From positions 6,377-70,376 of IMG/VR virus record IMGVR_UViG_3300038409_000069: 64,000 nucleotides of DNA. One strand, given 5' to 3'. Each line of letters opens with the position of its first letter. Position 1 is the first letter of the stretch. The notes under the pieces were generated by a model that worked only from the letters and a program-made list of their open reading frames with translations, did not search any database and was not told where the DNA came from. The stretch is from a virus. Made by a program: the position numbers and the translations under genes. Positions 2,810-55,637 of the stretch are shown piece after piece.

Positions 2810-3565
2810 ATGGCAAAGAATATCACCTCAGCGCCCCGCCGTTTCAAGCGGCTGAGCGTCGAGCTTCGAAACCTTCCGCTGGCCGTCCTGGTCGTCGTCA
2901 TCTCGATCTGCATCGAGGTCTACGCAACAGGCGGCATATTTCAGCAAAACACCGCTTCGGTTTCGATCTTCGGATTGGGCGTCGCGCTCGCGCCCGTCGA
3001 AGCGGCCATCTCCCTGGGGCTGGGTCTGCTCAGCCTCTGGTGTGCAATGACTGCCGCGGCTCTCAGGGCCGATCCGCGGTCCGATCAGAAGGCCCGGGCG
3101 TTCGGCGCGCAGGCTCTTGCGTTTGTCCTGCTCTGCGCTCCGATCTACTATGCTGGAAATTCGTTCGCATTCCAGCGTCAACTCGCGGACTATCGCGAGT
3201 ATTCAGGCTCAGAAGCTGAGCGCGCCGATCGAATGCTCGCGTTCGATGACGGCGCCGACAGCCGAGCCCGCGGCGACGCTGCGGAGAGCCTCAAGAACGG
3301 CGTCGAACCACAAGCCGCGCGGTTCGACTTTTTGTGCACGCTGTGGGCCGCGTTCCTTTACGTGGTGAACATGGCGGCGGCCCGCCTTGGTTGGCGCCCT
3401 CGTCCGGAAACGGACGCGGAGGCCAAGGCCCGGGAAGCGGCGGTCCGGGCGGCGAAGGCCGCTCAGACCCGCGAGCGCAACAAGAAGGCAGCCGACAAGG
3501 CCCGCCGCCAAGCCGAACGCGATGCAGCCCGCAAGGCCGGTCGCGGATTTCTCAGGGTCGTTTGA
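2810..3565 (+). CDS. multi-pass membrane protein (moron)
   Basis: GGGAG RBS and ATG 2810; about 4 hydrophobic helices and a basic Ala-rich coiled C-terminus; has its own promoter and terminator. Confidence 0.75.
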   Translation: MAKNITSAPRRFKRLSVELRNLPLAVLVVVISICIEVYATGGIFQQNTASVSIFGLGVALAPVEAAISLGLGLLSLWCAMTAAALRADPRSDQKARAFGAQALAFVLLCAPIYYAGNSFAFQRQLADYREYSGSEAERADRMLAFDDGADSRARGDAAESLKNGVEPQAARFDFLCTLWAAFLYVVNMAAARLGWRPRPETDAEAKAREAAVRAAKAAQTRERNKKAADKARRQAERDAARKAGRGFLRVV

Positions 3566-3569
3566 TCCG

Positions 3570-3606
3570 AAGCGCTCCGTCTCCTAACCGAGGCGGAGCG
3601 CTTTTT
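3570..3606 (+). terminator. rho-independent terminator
   Basis: AAGCGCTCCGTCTC-ctaacc-GAGGCGGAGCGCTT followed by a T-run, right after the stop codon. Confidence 0.8.
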
Positions 3607-3818
3607 GCGTCGCGGGCCGGGCGCTACTCCGGCTGCTCGCCATTCAACCCGCCAGCCAATATGGACGGGACCGAGCCTGTCGAAACTGGCATTCGACGCG
3701 TGTCTGCTTTCCACGCCGCCGCGACGCCTCCCTTATACGCTGCTTCGCGGCCCGGTGGAATCCTGTTGCGCCCGGCGGAGGGGGCGGTAGGGTGCGATCA
3801 AAATGCGTGGGGAGTGCA

Positions 3819-41537: not shown

Positions 41538-44184
41538 CGCCGTACAACCTTCTCAGCTTCAACCGACGCAGAAATATTAGGATCAGCTTCTTGACCTGCT
41601 GCTTGGTGTCGGGATGCTGAATCAGATACTGGACGCCGCCGTTATTAAGATCGCTGGCGTTATTGACCTCGTCCACCTCGAACAAGTGGCACAACGCCTT
41701 GTTCAACAAGCTCATGACTTGGGCAACGGCTTCGCTGCGGTCCTGAAAAATGCCGCGACCTAGCAGCTCGTTCGCGAAGCGCATCCCCTCCCTACTGAGA
41801 ATGCCCGGATTGTCCTTGGATTTGTAAAGATCATAGAGTTTGCTCAGCGGCGGATAGAGGCGCATCTTTTCCGCGTGCATCGCCTTGGCTGGCGCCAGTT
41901 TGAGATTAGCGTTCACACATTCGAGGAATTCCGCCCGCTCGGCCTCGTCCAGCGAATTGGTTTCGTATATCCACTGGCGTAATTCGTCGGCGGTTATGTC
42001 CTTCGCATCCTTGGGATGTTCCTTTAGAATTGCGCGCAGGGGCGCGATAGTTTCCGGAAGCGCAGTAAGGTCGCGCCGGTAATCTGGATCGGTTATTACG
42101 GCCTTAGCGTGCCGCTTGGCCCTCTCGATAAACTTCCCATCATTCTCGGGAAAAGTGTCCGACACAAGCTTACCGAGCCACGCGTCGTCATCGACATCCA
42201 AGGGACCGTCGCTTTCAATCCGCTGCTCGATAACGTGCTCAAGCTGAAACTTATCATGCTCCGTAAATGGCGATCCCTGTGGGTCAATATCCGGATCTCC
42301 CGGCTGGCCTACATCTCCTCTTAGGAGGTCGCCCCAGGTAGGAAGCGCGGCCTTGCTAAGAAGGTCGTCCATCCCATGCAACCAATCGCGTGCGGTCCGC
42401 ATCGAATGGTCTGTTTGTCCGCGTTTCGGTCCGCGCTTCGGAAAGAGATACCGAGTCGTCACAAACTCTGCGAGAGAGCGATCGCCCAGAAAGAACTTCA
42501 GGTGCGATGGAAGGCGGCTTCCCCTGCCGTCCAATTGCACTTGCCAGGATATTGATTGCTCCTGCCCGATATCCACGATGAGAAGACACGGCCAATTATT
42601 GAGACCACGAACCCCCATATCGACAATGAACTGAATGCGGGCAGACAAGTCGTCGCATCGGCCGCCGTTATGCTTCGCGCGGAACCATGGATGGATCAGT
42701 CCTCGTTTGGCGGAGAATGAGCGCTCCTCCTCCGGAAGTTTTCGCTCCTCAAAGGAATATCCATTCCAGGAGAGGCGGCTCTCGATCTGGCCGTACATGA
42801 TCGCGGTGCGCCAACCCGCACCGGAGAATGACTCTCGCGCTAAAGAGTTCTCAACGTGAGCAGCCAGTTGATCCGCAAGTTCACAACTTTCGTGGCGCAC
42901 GAGAATGTGAGGGCTGTACCAATGGTCAGGGGCACGCGCCTTCATCCGCTCTTCGAGATCACGCGCAATATGGATTGCATCCATCACTGCGGCGAGGTCG
43001 CTTGCGGCGCTTACCGATTCATCATGGGCGCCTGTATAGCTAACTACACGCCCGCGCTCGAAGGCATCATAGGCGCCTGGGATACACTCTCTGATATATC
43101 CACGATCTATGGAATCTTGGCTCCATGGCGGAATGATTTTAAGGCACTCATCCGCTGCTCGAACATCTTCATAGCTGGCGGCATACCCGAGCACGAAATA
43201 GGGAGGGAGCTTGCCGAGCCCGAATTGTTGCAGAAACTGTCCCTTTGCGTCGGTGGGCGACGCTGTGACGCCAAATTTCAAAGCGTCGCCGCCAAGTCTC
43301 ACGAGACGCGATGTCTGCTCCGCAGCAAAATCGCACTCATCCCAAATAATGACATCAAATTGAGACAGCGTGGCCTTAACAGCATCATCGCTACGGTTCT
43401 CGTTATCAGACTCATCCTTCCAGAGAGATTGTGGGCACGCCACGAGAATATCGTTGAATCCGGGGCCTCTTTGAAGTTGGGCAGATCCGTTTGCAATGGC
43501 GACCTGCGGCGCGCGAGTATGTAGACCTAGCTCAACCACTTCCGCGCGAAGTTCGCGCATCAACTGCTTTGCGAGTTCTCGCTCGGGCACGAGCCAAAGT
43601 ACGCGCCGCGCCCGCTTGCGCCGACCGACCGTCTTTAACACACCCTCATTTAGCGCCAGCAGCAGCGCAATCATAAGCATCGTTTTGCCGCCTCCTGGCG
43701 GTAAAACGATCAAGGACAAGTATCGCGAAAGGATGCTTCGCTTCTCAGGGTCCGTGAATAATTCGAGGAACGTCTCAACATTCTGCGGCCCCGCGAGCAT
43801 TTGAGTCACGCGAAGATTATCGTATGAAGCGCGCGAATCGAACCAATTCTCCTGAGCGTACCGGTCGTCTGGCTTGGCGCCGTAATTTCTATTTGCATTC
43901 GGGCCGCCGGAGCGACAGGTCAGCTTGCTATTCGAGAACGTGAACGGTCCGCCATCGGACCGCGGTGTCCGGTGGCTAGTATCTAATGGGATGCGTCCAT
44001 TTTCGCATGGCGCCCCACAAACCTCGTTACACACCCCCTCCACAAGGTTTTCGCAGACGTCGCCATTCTCATGGAAACGCAGGCACAAAAGACGCCAATC
44101 GTCCGCCGACATATCGCTTGGTTTATTGAGTGGCAGCTCAAATTCCGGCTGCGAGTCAAAAAGCTGCTTTTGTTCATTGCTCAT
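41530..44184 (-). CDS. SF2 (DExD, ResIII-like) helicase/ATPase with an N-terminal HNH-like domain
   Basis: Walker A LPPGGGKT; VLWLVP; WDECD; TAS; GVRGLN; QLDGRGSR; N-terminal Cys cluster and SHRTPRSDGG...NSKLTC. Confidence 0.8.
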   Translation of the reverse strand: MSNEQKQLFDSQPEFELPLNKPSDMSADDWRLLCLRFHENGDVCENLVEGVCNEVCGAPCENGRIPLDTSHRTPRSDGGPFTFSNSKLTCRSGGPNANRNYGAKPDDRYAQENWFDSRASYDNLRVTQMLAGPQNVETFLELFTDPEKRSILSRYLSLIVLPPGGGKTMLMIALLLALNEGVLKTVGRRKRARRVLWLVPERELAKQLMRELRAEVVELGLHTRAPQVAIANGSAQLQRGPGFNDILVACPQSLWKDESDNENRSDDAVKATLSQFDVIIWDECDFAAEQTSRLVRLGGDALKFGVTASPTDAKGQFLQQFGLGKLPPYFVLGYAASYEDVRAADECLKIIPPWSQDSIDRGYIRECIPGAYDAFERGRVVSYTGAHDESVSAASDLAAVMDAIHIARDLEERMKARAPDHWYSPHILVRHESCELADQLAAHVENSLARESFSGAGWRTAIMYGQIESRLSWNGYSFEERKLPEEERSFSAKRGLIHPWFRAKHNGGRCDDLSARIQFIVDMGVRGLNNWPCLLIVDIGQEQSISWQVQLDGRGSRLPSHLKFFLGDRSLAEFVTTRYLFPKRGPKRGQTDHSMRTARDWLHGMDDLLSKAALPTWGDLLRGDVGQPGDPDIDPQGSPFTEHDKFQLEHVIEQRIESDGPLDVDDDAWLGKLVSDTFPENDGKFIERAKRHAKAVITDPDYRRDLTALPETIAPLRAILKEHPKDAKDITADELRQWIYETNSLDEAERAEFLECVNANLKLAPAKAMHAEKMRLYPPLSKLYDLYKSKDNPGILSREGMRFANELLGRGIFQDRSEAVAQVMSLLNKALCHLFEVDEVNNASDLNNGGVQYLIQHPDTKQQVKKLILIFLRRLKLRRLYGDE

Positions 44185-44831
44185 GCGATTGCCATTGCTC
44201 CATTCAAAAGCCCAAGGTCCGCCAACGCCTGAGGCGATGGCAGCCGTTTCTTCCGTTCCACCTTTCGGGAGGGAGCGCGCTGCTGCTGCCCTTGGGTAGC
44301 AAGCAGCGGCGCGCGACCGAGGCACGGCGCCGCCGGAGAAGACTCTTCTTTCTTTGGTTCTGGATCTGGATATGGTTTAGCAAAAAGCGGCGCTTGATTT
44401 TCCGAGACTTTTTCGTTTTGGCTTGGCAAGTCACTTTCGAAGTCACTTCCAGAGTCACTTGCCAAGTCACTTGCGAAGTGGCGCGCGGCGGCGCCCTTTT
44501 TCCCCTGCTCCGAATACTCTTCCCAACGGCGCTCCATCTTGCCCAATTCGACGATGGCGCGGCCGTTCGAAATCATGCCGCCGGCGATCGTGATCTTCTT
44601 CGCCTCGACGAGTTCGCGCTTGATCCGCTTCCACCGTTGCGTGGTCGTGTTGGCCTGGCGCGCCAGCCAAATGTCGTCGTCGGCGATCGGCCCGGCTTCC
44701 TCGTAAATCAGGTCGAGGATGAGGTTATAGGCGCCGCGCTGCTCCAGGTTCAGCTTCGCCATTCCGCGCAACGCATTGGCCTGATACCGTGGGTAGTAGG
44801 GCATCTTGTGAAAGACTTCCGGAGATGTCAT
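44181..44831 (-). CDS. replication initiator (DUF1376/YdaU-like)
   Basis: GAGGAG RBS; MPYYPRY...LEQRGAYNLILDLIY; GKKGA; internal iterons. Confidence 0.8.
   Translation of the reverse strand: MTSPEVFHKMPYYPRYQANALRGMAKLNLEQRGAYNLILDLIYEEAGPIADDDIWLARQANTTTQRWKRIKRELVEAKKITIAGGMISNGRAIVELGKMERRWEEYSEQGKKGAAARHFASDLASDSGSDFESDLPSQNEKVSENQAPLFAKPYPDPEPKKEESSPAAPCLGRAPLLATQGQQQRAPSRKVERKKRLPSPQALADLGLLNGAMAIA
44428..44480. repeat. iterons of a lambdoid replication origin
   Basis: AAGTCACTT-type units at a 12-bp period (44428, 44440, 44452, 44464, partial 44476) next to a T-rich tract at 44345-44425, inside the initiator gene. Confidence 0.8.
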
Positions 44832-44865
44832 ATTCTCCTCGTTCAACGTGTGAGTGATTGGAATA

Positions 44866-48182: not shown

Positions 48183-48386
48183 ATGAAGCGCACAAAAGGC
48201 GCGCTGCGAAACTGTGCGCTCTACACTCAGATCGAGCTGACCATCTGCCACGGGAATGTGTATTTCACGATGAGCAACGAGCGCGGCGCGACTATTTCCG
48301 GCTACGTGCCGGTCGATGTTTGGCGCGCCTCGGTGAGGGCTTTGCCGCCGCCGGACAACAAGGTGCCGTTTCGGGCGCGTCATTGA
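48183..48386 (+). CDS. small antisense ORF downstream of cro
   Basis: GGAGGT RBS and ATG; KVPFR C-terminus. Confidence 0.45.
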   Translation: MKRTKGALRNCALYTQIELTICHGNVYFTMSNERGATISGYVPVDVWRASVRALPPPDNKVPFRARH

Positions 48387-48652
48387 GCGGCCTCCAAGGC
48401 AGGCTCGCGCTCCTTGTCGGGCTCAGGCGATTTCATGCGTTTGGCGCGCATGCGCGGCTCGGCGATTTGATCCCGCGTGAGTTCGGTGACGGCGATAATC
48501 CGCTCTTCGACGGCAGCGCTCGGCGGGCTCGCGCCCCGTTCGATGCGCGAGAGCTGCGCGTCTTTGATCCCAAAGAGGGGGGCCGCCTGATGGAGGTCGA
48601 AGTTCTTCTTCTTCCGCCAAAGCCGGAGCGGCGAATCATATTTCTCGCTCAT
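48380..48652 (-). CDS. Cro-like XRE HTH regulator
   Basis: LRLWRKKKNFDLHQAAPLFGIKDAQLSRIERG; divergent from the repressor. Confidence 0.8.
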   Translation of the reverse strand: MSEKYDSPLRLWRKKKNFDLHQAAPLFGIKDAQLSRIERGASPPSAAVEERIIAVTELTRDQIAEPRMRAKRMKSPEPDKEREPALEAAQ

Positions 48653-48662
48653 CGCCGGTAGG

Positions 48663-48679
48663 CTTGCACATGGTGCAAG
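48663..48679. promoter_or_regulatory. operator (OR-like)
   Basis: Palindrome CTTGCAC-ATG-GTGCAAG between cro and the repressor. Confidence 0.8.
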
Positions 48680-48747
48680 TTCGGTCAAGACGGATGGTTA
48701 ACCCATTGCTGCCATTCTTGCTTTCCGGGCGATGGGGGCCCTGAGGG

Positions 48748-49128
48748 ATGGCCCGTATGCTGCCTTCTATGGCGTTGAGGGCCCGAAAGAAAGAAGCCGG
48801 GGCCATACCCCGGAATTTCATACGGGAATGGCGGGAAGCGGAGGGCTGGACCCTCCTAGAGCTGCTCGACCACCTGGCGCCCCTGCATGTCCGGATGACG
48901 GAGGGCAATCTGTCCAAGATGGAGCGCTCGAAAACCCCCGTCGATACAGGCACTTTGCACGCCATGGCGGTTGTCTTCAAGACGAGCCCGATAGCCCTTA
49001 TGCTGGGGCCGCCCGGCGATCCGCTGGTCATGGCTATCGACGCCCTAGGGCCACTGGACAAAGAGGACCGCGCCGACGCCGTGGCGTCCCTCCTCTCCAT
49101 GCTGAGGCTCGCCAAGCGGGCCGGCTGA
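48748..49128 (+). CDS. CI-like XRE repressor without an S24 peptidase domain; exact start uncertain
   Basis: FIREWREAEGWTLLEL...TEGNLSKMERS. Confidence 0.8.
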   Translation: MARMLPSMALRARKKEAGAIPRNFIREWREAEGWTLLELLDHLAPLHVRMTEGNLSKMERSKTPVDTGTLHAMAVVFKTSPIALMLGPPGDPLVMAIDALGPLDKEDRADAVASLLSMLRLAKRAG

Positions 49129-49156
49129 CGGCCTAAGCCTCTGAAATCGCGGGCGA

Positions 49157-49240
49157 CTTGCACTAGGCGATATTTTTTCTTGCATATGGTGCAAGTTTGG
49201 CTTGCCCTTAACCAAACTTCGTGCTTGCCTGTAGTGCAAG
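49157..49240. promoter_or_regulatory. operators and promoter of the early operon (OL-like)
   Basis: CTTGCATATGGTGCAAG at 49179-49195 and CTTGCCTGTAGTGCAAG at 49224-49240, plus CTTGC half-sites at 49157 and 49201. Confidence 0.8.
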
Positions 49241-49293
49241 TTCAGGCCGCGATTCGGCGCCCCCGGCGCAGACGCGGGAATGGGAGAGGGCAA

Positions 49294-49860
49294 ATGGCCG
49301 TACAGGCGACAGCGACACTTCGGGCGATCAGCCCTTACTCGCAATCACGGGCGCACGAGACGCCGAAGAAAGAGAAGGAGACGCCGGACGCCTACGAGGT
49401 TCGGACGTGGCCTGAGAAAGCGCACTTCGACGACAAGGGCGCCGTCTTCATCCCGCCGATGTCGTTCAAGATGAGCCTGGATGCGGCGGCGAAGTATCTG
49501 TCGATCCAGATCCCGGGCAAGGGCAAGAGCACCTACACGAAGCACTTCGCCAGCGGCGTGCTCGTTCTCAACCCCGTCTATGTCGGGGTGAAGAAGAGCG
49601 AGCTTCGCTACGATCGCATTCACGCCAACGCGGATGGCGTTCGCGGCTCCGGCAAGCGCGTCTGGCGCTACTTCCCGCGCATCGAAGATTGGAAGGCCGA
49701 CGTCGAGTTCAACATCTACGACGAGGCCGTGACGCGGGACGTGTTCACGCGGGTTCTGGAAGAGGCCGGGAAGTTCATCGGGATTGGCCGCTTTCGTCCT
49801 CAGAACGGCGGGTTTTATGGCCGCTTTGCCGTGGAGGGCGTGAAGTGGCAAGAGATTTGA
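49294..49860 (+). CDS. stand-alone RAMP/Cas7-like RNA-binding protein (188 aa)
   Basis: N-terminal strand ATLRAISP; VFIPPMSFKMSL (RAMP IP..S.K motif); thumb-like loop; C-terminal Gly-rich loop GKFIGIGRFRPQNGGFYGRF; no other cas genes nearby. Confidence 0.75.
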   Translation: MAVQATATLRAISPYSQSRAHETPKKEKETPDAYEVRTWPEKAHFDDKGAVFIPPMSFKMSLDAAAKYLSIQIPGKGKSTYTKHFASGVLVLNPVYVGVKKSELRYDRIHANADGVRGSGKRVWRYFPRIEDWKADVEFNIYDEAVTRDVFTRVLEEAGKFIGIGRFRPQNGGFYGRFAVEGVKWQEI

Positions 49861-50386
49861 TCCACCTCGCGGCGCGGCTCAACACCGCACACCGCCTCAC
49901 GGCACAACACCCCACTCCGCAACGCACCTCTACGCGACACCGCGCAACGCGCCTCTATGCCTCGCCCAGCGACACAACTCCGCGCAACCCAACGCGACGT
50001 TTTCCTGTTCGCTCATTATCCCGCGCTGCTCGGCGTCTCGCCTCGCAACGCGCCACGTCACACCACGCCGCAACGCGACGCAGCGATTTCCTGTTTTTGG
50101 CTACGCTGCGCACCGCGTCACTGCGCTGCGCACCGCGACACCGCGCAACGCGACGTTTTCGGTTTCTCCCTTTCCGCAGCGCGTCGCTACGCAACTTCGC
50201 GCTCCGCGCGACGCGATGCAACGTTCGAGTTTTCAGCGCACCTTGCCGCGCCGCTGCCCGTCGCAGCGCGTCACGTCACAGCGCCCCACGCCGCAACGCT
50301 CATTCATCCAGTTTTCAGCGCCGCACTGCGCAGCACATCGCCACACATCGCACCACTGCACGGCACAGCATCCCGCAACGCAACGC
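49861..50386 (+). repeat. pentamer array (NN-CNC)n in six segments; putative guide ncRNA(s)
   Basis: Strict 5-nt periodicity of CGC/CAC/CTC triplets separated by variable dinucleotides; segments end in CGC-AA-CGC-like units followed by pyrimidine-rich linkers. Confidence 0.9.
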
Positions 50387-50400
50387 CCTTGGAGTCCTGA

Positions 50401-50922
50401 ATGCTTAACCTGACCGCCAGCCCTAAGCGCGCCGTCCAGATCGACCGGCTCACCGAGGCGCTTACCGCCCTCTCGATTGGCCAAGTCATCTCATACGAGA
50501 CGCTGTCCAAGATTGCGGGCGAACCTATGGGCAGCACGTCTTACGCTGTTCGCCGCGCCCTTTCGCGCGCCGAGAAAGAAACAGGCGCGCTCTTCGGCAA
50601 TGTCCGGAATGAAGGCTTTCAGCGCCTCCGCGCCGAGCACGCCCCCGGCGTTGGCGGCAAGGCCAACGATCACATCCGCCGCCACGCTCGCAAGACTGAG
50701 CGCCGCCTTGGCTCATGGCGCCCGCCGAATGACGCGACGCAATCCCAAATCGCCGAAGTCGCCGCCTACCGCGCACACATGGGCATGGTCGCGAGCATCG
50801 CCACCAAGAACATCATCAAGTCACTGACCAAGAGCATCGAGGAAGCCGCGCCGATCTCACCAGAAACGATGGCGCAGCGCCTTGCCGAAACGATGGGCAA
50901 GAGCCGTGACAAGGCCCGGTGA
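50401..50922 (+). CDS. winged-helix-like protein associated with the RAMP/array locus
   Basis: GGAG RBS; GQVISYETLSKIAG...FGNVRNEGFQRL wing. Confidence 0.7.
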   Translation: MLNLTASPKRAVQIDRLTEALTALSIGQVISYETLSKIAGEPMGSTSYAVRRALSRAEKETGALFGNVRNEGFQRLRAEHAPGVGGKANDHIRRHARKTERRLGSWRPPNDATQSQIAEVAAYRAHMGMVASIATKNIIKSLTKSIEEAAPISPETMAQRLAETMGKSRDKAR

Positions 50923-51116
50923 TGCTCTCCGACGCCTTCGTCGCCGCCCTCACCATAGCGATGTGGGAATGGATCAAGGCTGTAGTCCGCGCAGTCGCGC
51001 AGGCTCAGAGGGATTTTCAGCTTCGCCGCAAATCCCTTCGTTTTCCTTGCGGCGAGGAAGCGCCGGCCGGTCACCCAACGCATGTGCCGGCCGGCGCGAA
51101 GATTGGAGAGGCGTGA
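50919..51116 (+). CDS. hypothetical protein
   Basis: Coupled start/stop overlaps. Confidence 0.45.
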   Translation: MMLSDAFVAALTIAMWEWIKAVVRAVAQAQRDFQLRRKSLRFPCGEEAPAGHPTHVPAGAKIGEA

Positions 51117-53232: not shown

Positions 53233-53565
53233 TTGGAGCGCCAGTCCGATGCGGAAGGCGTCGTCCGCTGCGACGAATGCAACACGCCGATCGCCGAGCT
53301 GAAGGACCGCGGATGGGAGCGCCTCCGCGCCTTCGCGTTCGACCATGTCCTTGAACGCGCCATGGGAGGCAAGACGATGGTCGGCAACGGTCGCGCCATC
53401 TGCGACGGCCCTAAGACCTGCCATGCGATCAAGAGCGCCAAGCGGCAAGCCGTCATCGCGAAATGCAAGCGGCTCTCTGGGGAGACGCTGAGTCAGTACG
53501 AGCGCCGAAAGAGATTCGGCCCAAGCCTGAAGGGCAATTCAAGCTTCCAACGGAGAGGACGATGA
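53233..53565 (+). CDS. HNH endonuclease; 5' end possibly frameshifted
   Basis: CDEC...FDHV...GG...N...IC...CHAIKS. Confidence 0.7.
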   Translation: MERQSDAEGVVRCDECNTPIAELKDRGWERLRAFAFDHVLERAMGGKTMVGNGRAICDGPKTCHAIKSAKRQAVIAKCKRLSGETLSQYERRKRFGPSLKGNSSFQRRGR

Positions 53566-54323
53566 CCGGCCAAGAAATCATCCCGCCGAACGGCTCCGCA
53601 GTGATGCAGGCGCCGGAAAGGCAGGCGCTCACGCCGATGGAGCTTCTGAGCAACGCCATCGAGCGCGGCGTCGACCTGCCGATGCTCGAAAGGCTCATGG
53701 ACCTCCAAGACCGCCACGAGCGCGCGCAGGCTAAGAAAGCTTTCGACCAAGCGCGCGCCGACGCCAAACGGAAAATCCCGGTCATCAAGAAGAACCGAGA
53801 GGGCCACAACAAAAAGCGTTACGCTGATTACGCCGCCTATGCTGAGGTCGTCGACCCGATCCTCGCCGAGCATGGACTCAACGCCAGCTTCCGGCCGGAT
53901 CAGACCGACACCAAAATCAGCGTCACGTGCATCCTCTCGCATCGCGACGGACACCGGGAGGAAAGCACTCTCTCCGGGCCGCCGGACAACACCGGGAACA
54001 AGAATGCGATCCAGGCCATTGGCTCGACGCTGAGCTATTTGCAGCGCTACACCCTTTGCCTTGCCTTGGGTCTCGCCGCCACGGAAGACGATGACGGCCA
54101 AGCGGCGGGAAACGATCTGCCGATCGCCGAAGAACAGCTTCAGGCCCTCCTAAAGCGCGTCAGCGACACGCACGCAGACGCCGAGAGGCTGTGCAAGTAC
54201 ATCGGCGTTTCGTCTCTCGCGGAACTCCCGCAGAGCAAACTCGCCGAAGTCAGCGCCATCCTGGACGACCGGCAGCGCAAGGCCGACGCCAAGGCGAAGT
54301 CCAAGAGCGGAGCCGCCGCATGA
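53562..54323 (+). CDS. ERF-family single-strand annealing protein
   Basis: YADY; ILSHRDGH; QAIGSTLSYLQRY...DDDG. Confidence 0.88.
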   Translation: MTGQEIIPPNGSAVMQAPERQALTPMELLSNAIERGVDLPMLERLMDLQDRHERAQAKKAFDQARADAKRKIPVIKKNREGHNKKRYADYAAYAEVVDPILAEHGLNASFRPDQTDTKISVTCILSHRDGHREESTLSGPPDNTGNKNAIQAIGSTLSYLQRYTLCLALGLAATEDDDGQAAGNDLPIAEEQLQALLKRVSDTHADAERLCKYIGVSSLAELPQSKLAEVSAILDDRQRKADAKAKSKSGAAA

Positions 54324-54946
54324 TGATCCTGCAATCCGACCCGAATTGGGCGACGGCGCGCCTGGGCTGTCTCACCGCGTCGCACATCGCCGATATGATG
54401 GCGCGCACGAAGAGCGGCTGGGGCGCGTCGCGCGGGAATTACGCGGCTGAATTGGTCGCCGAGCGCCTGACCGGCGTTCCTGCATCGCGCTTCGTGAGCG
54501 CCGAGATGCAGCACGGCATCGACACCGAGCCGCTCGCGCGCGCCGCGTATGAATTCCACACCGATGCGACGACCGGCGAGGCCGCGTTCATCCTGCATCC
54601 GACGATCGAATGGTCCGGCGCATCGCCGGACGGGTTTGTCGGCGAAGACGGTCTCGTCGAGTTTAAGTGTCCGAACACGAGCACGCATATCGACACGCTC
54701 TTGGGCGGCGCGATCCCGGAGAAGTACCGCCTCCAGTGCATGTGGCAAATGGCATGCACGGGCCGGCAATGGTGCGATTGGGTTTCATTTGACCCGCGGC
54801 TGCCGGAGTCCATGCGCCTCTTCGTGCGCCGCCTGGAGCGTGACGCGGCCAAAGTCTCGGAAGTCGAGCGCGAAGCGGAACTCTTCCTCGCCGAGATCGA
54901 CGACACCATCAAGCGGCTACGCCGCACCTACCTGGAGGCCGCCTGA
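54320..54946 (+). CDS. lambda exonuclease/YqaJ-family nuclease
   Basis: WATARLGCLTAS; MQHGIDTEPLAR; GASPDG; EFKCP; QCMWQM. Confidence 0.92.
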   Translation: MMILQSDPNWATARLGCLTASHIADMMARTKSGWGASRGNYAAELVAERLTGVPASRFVSAEMQHGIDTEPLARAAYEFHTDATTGEAAFILHPTIEWSGASPDGFVGEDGLVEFKCPNTSTHIDTLLGGAIPEKYRLQCMWQMACTGRQWCDWVSFDPRLPESMRLFVRRLERDAAKVSEVEREAELFLAEIDDTIKRLRRTYLEAA

Positions 54947-55083
54947 TGTTCGGCTCCGGCCTCACCTATCCAGACGAAGACGAAGACGATTGGACGAACC
55001 CTTTCGACGATCCGGAAGAGGAAGAGGACGACGAGATCGAACCTGAGTTCGACGACGACAACGCGCTTGAGGAGGAGTTCTGA
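54946..55083 (+). CDS. 45-aa extremely acidic peptide
   Basis: GGAGG RBS; TGATG overlap; 23 of 45 residues are D/E, none are K/R. Confidence 0.6.
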   Translation: MFGSGLTYPDEDEDDWTNPFDDPEEEEDDEIEPEFDDDNALEEEF

Positions 55084-55085
55084 CC

Positions 55086-55637
55086 GTGGGGACCGTTGTC
55101 CATCTCATCAAGCGTCTCGGCTCACTCGTTCCGGCGGACAGTGAGGGCGAGGAAGCCCTGCGGGCGATTGCGCACGGCGTCGAAGTAAAAGCCGAGATCA
55201 CTATCCCGGTGAACGCCCCCTTTAGGCGCAAATTCTTCGCACTCCTGGGAGTGGTCTATCCGCACGTCAAAGAGACATGGCCGGAGCGCGAAGACTTCCG
55301 CGAACAGGTGCTCATTTCGCTTGGCTTCTCCCGAACGGTCAAGCGCATGGACGGAACGACGGAAACGCGCGCCGTCAGCATGAAGTGGCACAAGATGAAA
55401 GAGCCGGAGTTCAGGACTCTCTATGAAAGCTTTGTGGATCTGTGCGTCACCAAGCTCTTGCCTGGCGTTGGCCGCGAGGACGTAACGCGGGAGTTCGAAG
55501 AGGTTTTGGCAGGATATCAGAACAGTCTCGCATCCATCGAAACACATCTTCGGGGGGATGCGAAGCGCGACGCGGGCGGGGTAAGGGGGCTTACCGGATC
55601 GCCCGCGTCGCAACGTGCTTCAGGAGCCTCCCGATGA
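55086..55637 (+). CDS. DUF1367-like (NinB/Orf-related) recombination accessory protein
   Basis: RRKFFALL...SMKWHKMKEPEFRTLY. Confidence 0.7.
   Translation: MGTVVHLIKRLGSLVPADSEGEEALRAIAHGVEVKAEITIPVNAPFRRKFFALLGVVYPHVKETWPEREDFREQVLISLGFSRTVKRMDGTTETRAVSMKWHKMKEPEFRTLYESFVDLCVTKLLPGVGREDVTREFEEVLAGYQNSLASIETHLRGDAKRDAGGVRGLTGSPASQRASGASR

Follow-up and report, generated by a model that had tools for sequence, protein, structure and literature searches.

A probable phage-borne VIPR system with C-R-C-N-N pentamers, whose first guide matches a conserved motif in tail-fibre-like genes of other phages

VIPR systems, first described in preprints of 2026, combine, according to their accessible text, one Cas7-like protein with guide RNAs built in five-base steps (10.64898/2026.04.26.720920, 10.64898/2026.04.26.720927). 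In the accessible parts of the same sources, VIPR type II includes Escherichia phage SUSP1 and a Pseudomonas fulva prophage (10.64898/2026.04.26.720920, 10.64898/2026.04.26.720927), and the SUSP1 arrays were detected as RNAs (10.64898/2026.04.26.720920). The canonical fixed triplet is GGY, the available text of the discovery paper also allowing "a related consensus", and a structured pseudoknot 3' tail is described in that text for the SUSP1 clade only (10.64898/2026.04.26.720920). From what is accessible of the cryo-EM preprint, the guanines are read in SUSP1 by two residues of the G-loop, D177 and W178. A later preprint, in the sections available, reports non-canonical VIPR arrays found via entropy periodicity and names GAC/NN and CAC/NN (10.64898/2026.10.21.760802). 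An earlier note on the DNA analysed here had mentioned a report of VIPR with GGY-NN units, which does exist as the 2026 preprints. It had also held a CNC-NN version to be a distinct variant; the kind is not new, and non-GGY triplets are already published in the accessible text of that later preprint (10.64898/2026.10.21.760802).

Here we present a computational analysis of a 64-kb stretch of phage DNA, hereafter the window, in which a VIPR locus stands at the head of an early operon. Its features are as follows:

48380-48688, - strand: upstream HTH gene (HTH_31)
48748-49128, + strand: upstream HTH gene (HTH_31)
49179..49242, + strand: operator-like palindrome, two copies of 19 nt (CTTGCA-N5-TGCAAG type), between the upstream HTH genes and vipr
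49294..49860, + strand: vipr, 188 aa, stand-alone RAMP/Cas7-like protein with G-loop GIGRFRPQNGGFYGRF (PDB 36pp, tblastn, AF2, Foldseek, PHROG)
49861..50400, + strand: putative vrRNA array, 94 C-R-C-N-N pentamers in about six blocks, the terminal 14 nt containing the RBS of the next gene
50401..50922, + strand: vap-like accessory gene, 173 aa, with a predicted winged-helix-like N-terminal half followed by long helices

The 188-aa frame opens with an ATG at 49294 and closes with a TGA stop at 49858-49860, the 526-nt array (49861-50386) begins one base past this stop, and a 14-nt spacer containing GGAG (50387-50400) leads to the 173-aa gene. The three tightly packed elements reported previously were thus recovered at the same coordinates, as two frames (49294-49860 and 50401-50922) with the 526-nt tract between them, head to tail on the + strand. 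Upstream, the palindrome copies (49179-49197 and 49224-49242) are 84% alike, with an extra inverted arm at 49156-49165, and the pair probably forms the control region of the operon. The phage itself is of temperate type, with a CI/Cro-like switch and Erf, exonuclease and NinB early genes. In a second DNA sample, the array pieces were identical and the vipr piece was a variant. A search of RNA runs returned none that contains the locus. The lack of cas1 and of a CRISPR repeat-spacer array, remarked upon before, held in our searches: Cas1 (PF01867) had no match across the whole 70-kb virus record, in a search whose control was positive in 7 of 14 known genomes, and Tandem Repeats Finder detected no CRISPR-like array in the window. 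Rfam models gave nothing close to gathering score between 48900 and 51100, and no hammerhead between the blocks of the array.

The 188-aa protein is a Vipr with a predicted RAMP/Cas7 fold. Using a profile built from 16 clade members, the closest PDB match was 36pp_D, "SUSP1 Vipr protein" (E 3.8e-7), all further matches having E >= 0.38. By tblastn, the protein was related to LESphi2 (E 7e-12) and to SUSP1 gp039 (E 2e-4), with an overall identity to SUSP1 Vipr of only 23%, and it matched phrog_4652 (E 4e-16); Pfam held no family for either the 188-aa or the 173-aa protein. The AF2 model (pLDDT 90, pTM 0.84) had its best Foldseek matches in type VII Cas7, Csm3 and Cmr4 (E 9e-8 to 1e-4, TM 0.46-0.59), so that the RAMP/Cas7 assignment, for which a fold comparison had been advised, agrees with both the model and the sequence kinship to SUSP1 Vipr. 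The two peptides originally quoted as hallmarks, VFIPPMSFKMSL and GIGRFRPQNGGFYGRF, are both present in the translation. Identity to the nearest relatives is 76-80%, and of 3399 candidates, 3331 proteins match at E <= 0.001. The residues listed for SUSP1 in the cryo-EM preprint (H17, K33, E71, M72, R138, C173, D177, W178 and R179) carry the same numbering in the SUSP1 ORF, allowing D177 to be aligned to R166 and W178 to F167 in the G-loop of the 188-aa protein. Because these two G-loop residues are replaced, the RNA grip is not transferable from the solved structure. Replacement of D177 by arginine was considered as the cause of a switch from G to C in the fixed triplet and was ruled out, since R166 is invariant in the 16-sequence clade alignment and is kept in 75 of 76 G2-type proteins, GGC-type members among them.

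The tract between the two genes has a clear period of five. Its self-identity reached 0.47, 0.45 and 0.46 at lags 5, 10 and 15, against 0.17-0.19 at lags 1, 4 and 6, and positions 49861-50366 contain exact NNCNC runs of 19, 5, 9, 10, 4, 11 and 10 units. In the remainder of the 64-kb window no NNCNC run exceeded 4 units (two such runs on the + strand, six on the -), and 20 shuffles each held 4-19 NNCNC runs of at least 4 units. A Viterbi/EM segmentation resolved 94 units with the profile C90, G59/A26, C88, N, N, upholding the initial reading of three fixed and two variable positions, and CAC is the second commonest unit of the array. The units are arranged in about six blocks with short T-rich segments between them, block ends being marked by conserved CGCaa CGCga-type units and a T-rich stretch. 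These short tails folded no better than shuffled sequences (z 0.0 to 1.3). The segmentation gave the following parts:

49863..49922, + strand: guide 1a, 12 units, NN = CT GG GG AA CG AC CT GG AA CC TC AA
49923..50023, + strand: guide 1b, about 15 units of which the last three are CGCaa CCCaa CGCga, T-rich tail at 50003-50023; no target match
50024..50098, + strand: block 2, some 9 guide units followed by CGCaa CGCga CGCag, with a T-rich tail; no target match
50099..50174, + strand: block 3, some 9 guide units followed by CGCaa CGCga, with a T-rich tail; no target match
50175..50236, + strand: block 4, short, degenerate in part, with 6 + 3 units and a T-rich tail
50237..50318, + strand: block 5, some 11 guide units followed by CGCaa CGCtc, with a tail; no target match
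50319..50388, + strand: block 6, some 11 guide units followed by CGCaa CGCaa CGCcc; no target match

What is new here is the exact match of the first guide to a conserved motif in tail-fibre-like genes of other phages. Read with a one-base skip, units 1-10 of guide 1a gave 76 exact matches in viral contigs, all 76 in frame and coding LGGNRTLG[NK]P towards the C-terminal end of tail-fibre-like proteins, and the same dinucleotides with a two-base skip gave none in these contigs. The NN letters of the guide are the first two bases of the codons for LGGNRTLGNP(S)N, and the skip falls on the wobble position of the target codons. Units 11-12 also match fully in two of the target loci (L134 and L190), whose target region codes LGGNRTLGNPSN; altogether, block 1 matches the target in only 12 of its 27 units. 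The matched sites comprise 63 distinct 36-mers, in which most skipped positions show all four bases, and the GC content of the matching loci ranges from 42 to 72%; being homologues of one protein domain, the 76 matches count as one target family and not as 76 independent events. The target ORFs match tail-fibre PHROGs, and the motif lies 76-82 codons (about 78) before the stop in 70 of the 72 ORFs whose stop is in the locus. The earlier proposal that the variable dinucleotide reads the target is therefore borne out for this guide, which matches other phages' genes by the published one-base-skip rule. Since the guide has the sense of the target mRNA, pairing is possible only with the template DNA strand and not with the transcript. 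No homologue of the target protein was detected in the phage itself, and the guide 1a pattern was absent from the three cellular genomes holding related loci (0/3, up to one mismatch) and from 401 sampled genomes of one bacterial class (0/401, exact).

Target reading with a one-base skip was observed for guide 1a only. The exact one-base-skip patterns of blocks 1b, 2, 3, 5 and 6, each with 18-22 fixed bases and searched by exact match only, had no match in viral contigs, nor did longer patterns of blocks 1b and 6 in metagenome contigs. Within the phage's own 70 kb, no guide exceeded shuffled-order controls at skips of 0-3; the same was true, against shuffled controls, of the array's guides in 124 related loci (716 kb), where no rival-vipr target was found for the guides of the 49861-50386 array, and of the other guides near the 76 tail-fibre sites. 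The silencing of host defence genes, suggested at the outset, found no evidence here.

The 173-aa gene is, as judged by comparison of sequence profiles, the accessory gene of this clade and an apparent distant relative of vap1. Its homologues adjoin vipr in 45 of 124 other loci (tblastn, E <= 0.01), and hhalign against an alignment of the SUSP1 and LESphi2 vap proteins gave 85% (E 6e-6, 94 columns), the link to vap coming from this profile comparison only, as BLASTP gave no similarity to SUSP1 gp038 or LESphi2 P21_8; PHROG held no family for the protein. The AF2 model (pLDDT 92) has the order a1-b1-a2-a3-b2-b3, and its top Foldseek rows were wHTH proteins, with a best E of 0.014. The wHTH label given initially is thus plausible as a description of the gene, its support from the fold search being weak. 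A vap1-like relation and a predicted DNA binder would fit VIPR types II, VI or VII as described in the accessible part of the discovery preprint (10.64898/2026.04.26.720920).

The association between protein and array extends across the clade, answering the proposed check for arrays beside homologues: pentamer arrays were called in 120 of 122 related loci, adjoining vipr on its strand, with an array unit within 200 nt of the vipr gene ends in 116 of the 120. Position 3 was at least 80% pyrimidine on the vipr strand in 117 of the 120 loci. SUSP1 and LESphi2 have GGY-NN arrays on the vipr strand. Within this single Vipr clade the fixed triplets, or handles, are diverse (CGC 41, GGC 39, GAC 10, CTC 8 and others), the third base being nearly always C. 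On a tree of 106 proteins, at least 36 handle changes were counted, for a minimum possible of 14 and a shuffled-label mean of 58, and sister pairs may bear unlike handles, as for L085 (GGC) and L112 (GTC) at 79% identity or L050 (CGC) and L068 (GAC) at 74%. Raw mutual information associated N112/A111 with position 1 (N112 with C1) and R166 with position 2 (G2); under phylogenetic control on supported branches, an underpowered comparison with 1 and 6 independent pairs, these associations were lost (p about 0.5 to 1), and both were rejected as evidence for triplet-setting residues and retained only as a lead. In sister-pair comparisons, merely generally variable columns stood out. In L031 and L076, with CGC and GTC handles, a guide spells the G-loop codons of rival vipr genes; for instance, the CGC-type guide of L031 spells the RPRNNGYYGRF codons, from which its own gene differs at three Arg codons. 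One might tentatively see in the handle a fast-evolving lock, switched many times among CGC, GGC, GAC, CTC, GTC and CAC within a Vipr clade of 45-80% identity while the one-base-skip code stayed constant, an idea that we regard as possible and rather doubtful. If true, handle switching would make a phage's Vipr deaf to the guides or decoy vrRNAs of rivals and satellites, and the clade would constitute a natural set of mutually orthogonal protein-handle pairs.

Altogether, the locus is very probably a phage-borne VIPR system made of a Vipr protein, a vrRNA array and a vap-like accessory gene. This reading builds on the homology and fold of the protein, on the array and its register, on its conservation beside homologues and on the one-base-skip match to natural targets. 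By analogy with described systems we infer how it would work, from the transcribed strand and RNA processing to filament formation, repression and the part played by the accessory protein. On the model of SUSP1, the + strand of 49861-50400 would be transcribed as part of the operon and then processed into about six to seven vrRNAs. Cas7 polymerises on guide RNA with a fixed footprint; by analogy, Vipr protomers would polymerise along the vrRNA, one per pentamer, gripping the fixed C-R-C triplet and presenting the two variable bases. These would pair with DNA, every third target base being skipped, so that the guide would read codon positions 1 and 2, and the filament on the target would block transcription. 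As guide 1a would be aimed at the conserved LGGNRTLGNP[ST]N motif in other phages' tail-fibre-like genes, the likely role of the system would be to cripple competing phages.

Other readings of the same data deserve weighing. The guides of a VIPR system might come from the - strand, reading G-Y-G-N-N with guanines in the fixed part: the - strand of the array is G-rich, the fixed motifs published in the available texts (GGY, NNNGG, YNNNG, NNNNG) all contain G, and DNA targets cannot separate the strands, a pattern and its reverse complement matching one site. We nevertheless consider this very unlikely, as the array fills the gap between co-directional genes, from the base after the stop to 14 nt before the next start, and a promoter scan of both strands returned no site. 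Moreover, relatives 50-60% identical have canonical GGC-NN arrays at equal positions on the vipr strand, and the pyrimidine at position 3 on that strand, kept in 117 of 120 loci regardless of positions 1 and 2, would become a purine in a - strand reading. Judging from these related clade loci, the RNA strand of the array is probably the + strand.

It is also improbable that this is a VIPR remnant, decayed or idle, which kept the protein and array and whose guides have ceased to function or lack living targets, even though five of the six blocks lack a detectable target and block 4, besides being short, is degenerate. Both vipr and vap retain intact, conserved frames, with nearest relatives 76-80% identical, conservation at the fixed positions is about 90% across the 94 units and guide 1a is perfect over 10-12 units in living target genes; absent targets are, besides, expected where competitors are unsequenced. 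Open frames of 147 and 239 aa do cross the tract on the + strand, and the neighbouring gene is a predicted DNA binder, which would suit a coding region or a DNA-level element (repeats serving replication or recombination, or sites bound by the winged-helix-like protein) in place of a guide RNA array. Such an origin seems hardly credible: coding sequence does not accommodate a 5-nt period, the dinucleotides in units 1-12 give the codons of a foreign gene at a one-base skip and match nothing at a two-base skip, as not expected of a protein-binding repeat, and like architecture is found around homologues of a protein that has a relative solved together with its RNA.

Read as a VIPR system, the locus bears on a concept that is only months old and whose rules were derived from GGY-type systems of two clades. 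The code of two bases read and one skipped also fits a guide with a C-G/A-C triplet, and a protein motif that many phages conserve is within the reach of such guides; as the skipped base is the wobble base, the target does not escape by synonymous change. The diversity of handles inside a single clade points to natural and possibly orthogonal Vipr-handle pairs, which would be useful if VIPR becomes a programmable DNA binder. For phage ecology, the locus offers the case of a temperate-type wetland phage that may disarm its competitors by silencing their tail-fibre genes.

Compared with SUSP1-type VIPR, the locus shares a lone Vipr RAMP, pentamers on the vipr strand with three fixed and two variable bases and a position-3 pyrimidine, the one-base skip at the wobble position of coding targets without self-targeting, and a phage-borne setting that includes a small accessory gene for a predicted DNA binder, a distant relative of vap. 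Unlike in SUSP1, the triplet is C-G/A-C and not G-G-Y, a departure from the canonical motif that leaves family membership intact, the G-loop carries R166-F167 in place of D177-W178, and the short, T-rich tails lack a predicted fold, in contrast to the SUSP1 pseudoknot. The entire array lies between vipr and vap, unlike in published VIPR type II, one block has 27 units against the 9-16 given in the accessible reports, and the target is a tail-fibre gene, whereas the targets in those accessible reports are a satellite and a lysis-lysogeny regulator.

As with the non-canonical arrays of the later preprint, a Vipr-like protein stands beside a 5-nt non-GGY array, and both GAC and CAC occur in the present clade (10.64898/2026.10.21.760802). 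CGC/NN or C-R-C/NN is not among the triplets named in the available text of that preprint, although it may be in its figures, and the non-canonical arrays come there, in that text, without a target or skip-rule test, whereas one natural target family is identified here (10.64898/2026.10.21.760802). The L031 and L076 guides against the rival vipr G-loop resemble the vipr-targeting vrRNAs of SUSP1-family phages; unlike those, as far as the accessible text goes, they belong to a different, environmental clade with CGC and GTC handles, and the encoder's own vipr differs at Arg codons (10.64898/2026.10.15.759431).

Finally, the protein resembles the Cas7 subunits of class 1 effectors (type VII Cas7, Csm3, Cmr4) in its RRM/RAMP fold, glycine-rich loop and thumb. 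Unlike class 1 CRISPR effectors, it comes without a CRISPR repeat-spacer array (in the window) and without Cas1 (in the 70-kb record), its guide is read at two bases in five versus two in three of the target, and the VIPR footprint is 5 nt against 6 nt for the Cas7 of class 1 effectors.

Re-deriving the open frames and the repeat tract from the sequence of the window, we recovered a compact locus in which a putative Vipr, the lone Cas7-like protein of the CRISPR-related VIPR systems, is followed by a pentamer-coded guide array and an accessory gene, all with the coordinates, lengths and peptide motifs that the earlier note had reported.

Features of the vipr locus and its surroundings
44181-44846, - strand: primosomal-like gene
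Upstream of vipr: two divergent HTH genes
49156-49242, in the gap separating vipr from the Cro-like HTH gene: a pair of operator-like palindromes (CTTGCA-N5-TGCAAG, 19 nt each) spaced 45 nt apart, accompanied by a third inverted arm
49294 (ATG)-49860, + strand: vipr, 188-aa open frame
49861-50386, + strand: C-rich pentamer array with a 5-nt rhythm, starting at the base after vipr and ending 14 nt before the next ATG
50401-50922, + strand: accessory gene, 173-aa open frame
53463-55637, downstream in the vipr operon: recombination module (Erf-like annealing protein, RecE-like exonuclease, NinB/Orf-like mediator)

The virus record (70,376 bp, rated complete by CheckV) originates from a wetland metagenome. 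With the HTH genes and palindromes upstream of vipr and the Erf-like, exonuclease and NinB-like genes downstream, the VIPR system therefore heads the early operon beside the phage switch region, a helicase and the primosomal-like gene lying on its other side. The latter gene contains 4.3 copies of a 12-nt tandem repeat, AAGTCACTTGCG, at 44428-44479, possibly origin iterons. A weak Rfam match to PtaRNA1 at 51043-51098 (24.7 bits, E 0.046; gathering score 47) is probably due to chance.

The 188-aa protein had no Pfam match, and its sole PHROGs match was phrog_4652 (E 4e-16), of unknown function. Searching phage records with tblastn linked it to a hypothetical protein of the Pseudomonas phage LESphi2 (E 7e-12) and, over the C-terminal 80 residues, to gp039 of Escherichia phage SUSP1 (E 2e-4), the type phage of VIPR systems according to the text of bioRxiv 10.64898/2026.04.26.720920. 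This gp039 carries, at exactly those numbers, the Vipr residues H17, K33, E71, M72, R138, C173, D177, W178 and R179 named in the text of the companion cryo-EM preprint (bioRxiv 10.64898/2026.04.26.720927). Against the PDB, a profile of 16 clade members matched chain 36pp_D, "SUSP1 Vipr protein", at E 3.8e-7, and beyond it nothing under E 0.38. The RAMP/Cas7-like fold proposed in the earlier note was borne out by an AlphaFold model (pLDDT 90, pTM 0.84), for which Foldseek returned type VII Cas7, Csm3 and Cmr4 (E 9e-8 to 1e-4, TM 0.46-0.59). On sequence profiles and predicted structure, the 188-aa protein is a Vipr.

The 173-aa accessory protein belonged to no Pfam or PHROG family, and 45 of 124 other loci have a homologue next to vipr. 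BLASTP found no link to the accessory proteins of SUSP1 and LESphi2; profile comparison did join them (85% probability, E 6e-6, 94 columns). Its model (pLDDT 92) follows the winged-helix order a1-b1-a2-a3-b2-b3, then long helices, with weak Foldseek matches (best E 0.014), the top-ranked of which are winged-helix DNA binders.

The array tract is rich in C (234 per 540 nt) and strictly periodic, with identities of 0.45-0.47 at lags 5, 10 and 15 versus 0.17-0.19 at lags 1, 4 and 6. It holds exact NNCNC runs of 19, 5, 9, 10, 4, 11 and 10 units; runs of more than 4 units are absent from the rest of the 64-kb window. Viterbi/EM segmentation called 94 units (C90 / G59-A26 / C88 / N / N) in about six blocks, the longest of 27 units, each closed by conserved CGCaa CGCga-type units and a short T-rich stretch. 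In a second wetland sample, contig pieces were identical to array parts 50044-50207 and 50317-50515 (0 differences), and a vipr piece within the 49472-50515 span had 19 differences in 433 nt. Guides may be common to related strains whose protein gene has diverged, the pieces being short and at low depth.

The Vipr family is a large one: of 3399 candidates, 3331 proteins matched at E <= 0.001. We examined 122 related loci, of which 42 came from genomes and 80 were taken from the 331 in viral contigs; near-copies reduced the proteins to 108 distinct out of 123. Consistent adjacency of such arrays to homologues, another point raised in the earlier note, held in 120 of the 122 loci (at least 8 units), both exceptions (L038 and L044) being cut at a contig end, and a unit lay within 200 nt of the gene start or stop in 116 of these 120. 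Every array shares its strand with vipr, as do the GGY-NN arrays of SUSP1 and LESphi2, and the third fixed position was at least 80% pyrimidine in 117 of 120. Mainly on this ground, we infer that the + strand is the RNA strand of the array and that its units read C1-R2-C3-N4-N5, parallel to G1-G2-Y3-N4-N5.

The first two letters of the fixed triplet, or handle, vary between loci (CGC 41, GGC 39, GAC 10, CTC 8, nGC 5, GTC 4, CAC 3 and ten others). A 106-protein tree requires a minimum of 36 handle changes, against a shuffled mean of 58. The window's Vipr falls in a 36-member clade with good support; C occupies handle position 1 in 35 members, and in the remaining one no base exceeds the calling threshold at that position. 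Sister proteins differ in handle at 79% identity (L085, GGC; L112, GTC) and at 74% (L050, CGC; L068, GAC): switches of handle can occur across short evolutionary distances. Handle-setting residues were sought and not found, raw associations failing phylogenetic control for want of independent contrasts and sister pairs being too diverged to read.

NN pairs have been shown to read DNA in a gapped manner, each unit passing over one target base (text of bioRxiv 10.64898/2026.04.26.720920). Applying this rule to units 1-10 of block 1 (20 fixed bases), within guide 1a (its first 12 units, 49863-49922), yielded 76 exact matches among the viral contigs searched, all in frame and encoding LGGNRTLG[NK]P. 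Units 11 and 12 had full matches in target loci L134 and L190, most other loci agreed with them at 3 of 4 bases, and the match stopped past unit 12. The matches comprised 63 distinct 36-mers with all four bases at most skipped positions; thus the skipped base is the wobble base, and synonymous variation is accommodated. Chance would not be expected to produce a match over 20 fixed bases, and the controls gave none: 0 matches for these dinucleotides when two bases are skipped and for each of five patterns from other blocks (18-22 fixed bases) in the same collection. Two longer patterns had 0 matches in the metagenome collection, and the guide 1a pattern was absent from a sample of 401 genomes from one bacterial class. 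Being akin to one another, the 76 matches count as one target family.

Target ORFs matched the tail-fibre PHROGs phrog_36707, 24210 and 9017, together with phrog_4757 (unknown function), with no informative Pfam match. The motif lay 76-82 codons upstream of the stop in 70 of the 72 ORFs whose stop fell within the locus, and target loci spanned 42-72% GC. The window's phage contains neither a homologue of the target protein nor a self-target of the guides. Because guide 1a has the same sense as the target mRNA, the template DNA strand is its only possible pairing partner, in keeping with targeting of DNA and not of RNA.

When all 443 guide runs (7285 units) in the related loci were searched against these loci with spaced seeds, a one-base skip gave 53 seven-unit seed matches, versus 27, 34 and 21 for skips of 0, 2 and 3. 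Matches of 10 and 11 units occurred solely under the one-base skip; skip 2 reached 9 units twice. The best came from guides of L031 (CGC type) and L076 (GTC type), spelling G-loop codons (RPRNNGYYGRF) of vipr in other loci. The first guide after vipr in L031 (3574-3688) spells codon positions 1-2 of this peptide and matches vipr of L120, L084, L103, L059 and L091 over 9-11 units; its own vipr encodes the same peptide with three different Arg codons (AGG, CGG, CGA versus CG, AG, AG in the guide), an apparent self-avoidance through synonymous codons. The L076 guide (3544-3648) spells G-loop codons (NNGYYGRFKV) of L120 and L091 vipr, whereas the vipr of L076 itself departs from the guide at the Arg codon and the one after it. 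Rival vipr genes as targets are already reported for SUSP1-family phages in the text of bioRxiv 10.64898/2026.10.15.759431.

VIPR has already been published in three 2026 preprints. The methods text of bioRxiv 10.64898/2026.04.26.720920 mentions alternative repeats (NNNGG, YNNNG, NNNNG), and a later preprint, bioRxiv 10.64898/2026.10.21.760802, describes 21 clusters whose triplets are not GGY, giving GAC/NN and CAC/NN by name; the locus therefore belongs to a known kind. A CGC handle was not found named in the main text of the VIPR preprints. Unlike the described systems, this one has a C-R-C handle instead of GGY, R166-F167 in the G-loop where SUSP1 has D177-W178, short block tails without predicted fold, and a 27-unit block. 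What it adds to them is a natural target and a test of the skip rule for a non-GGY guide, together with a view of handle diversity inside one Vipr clade.
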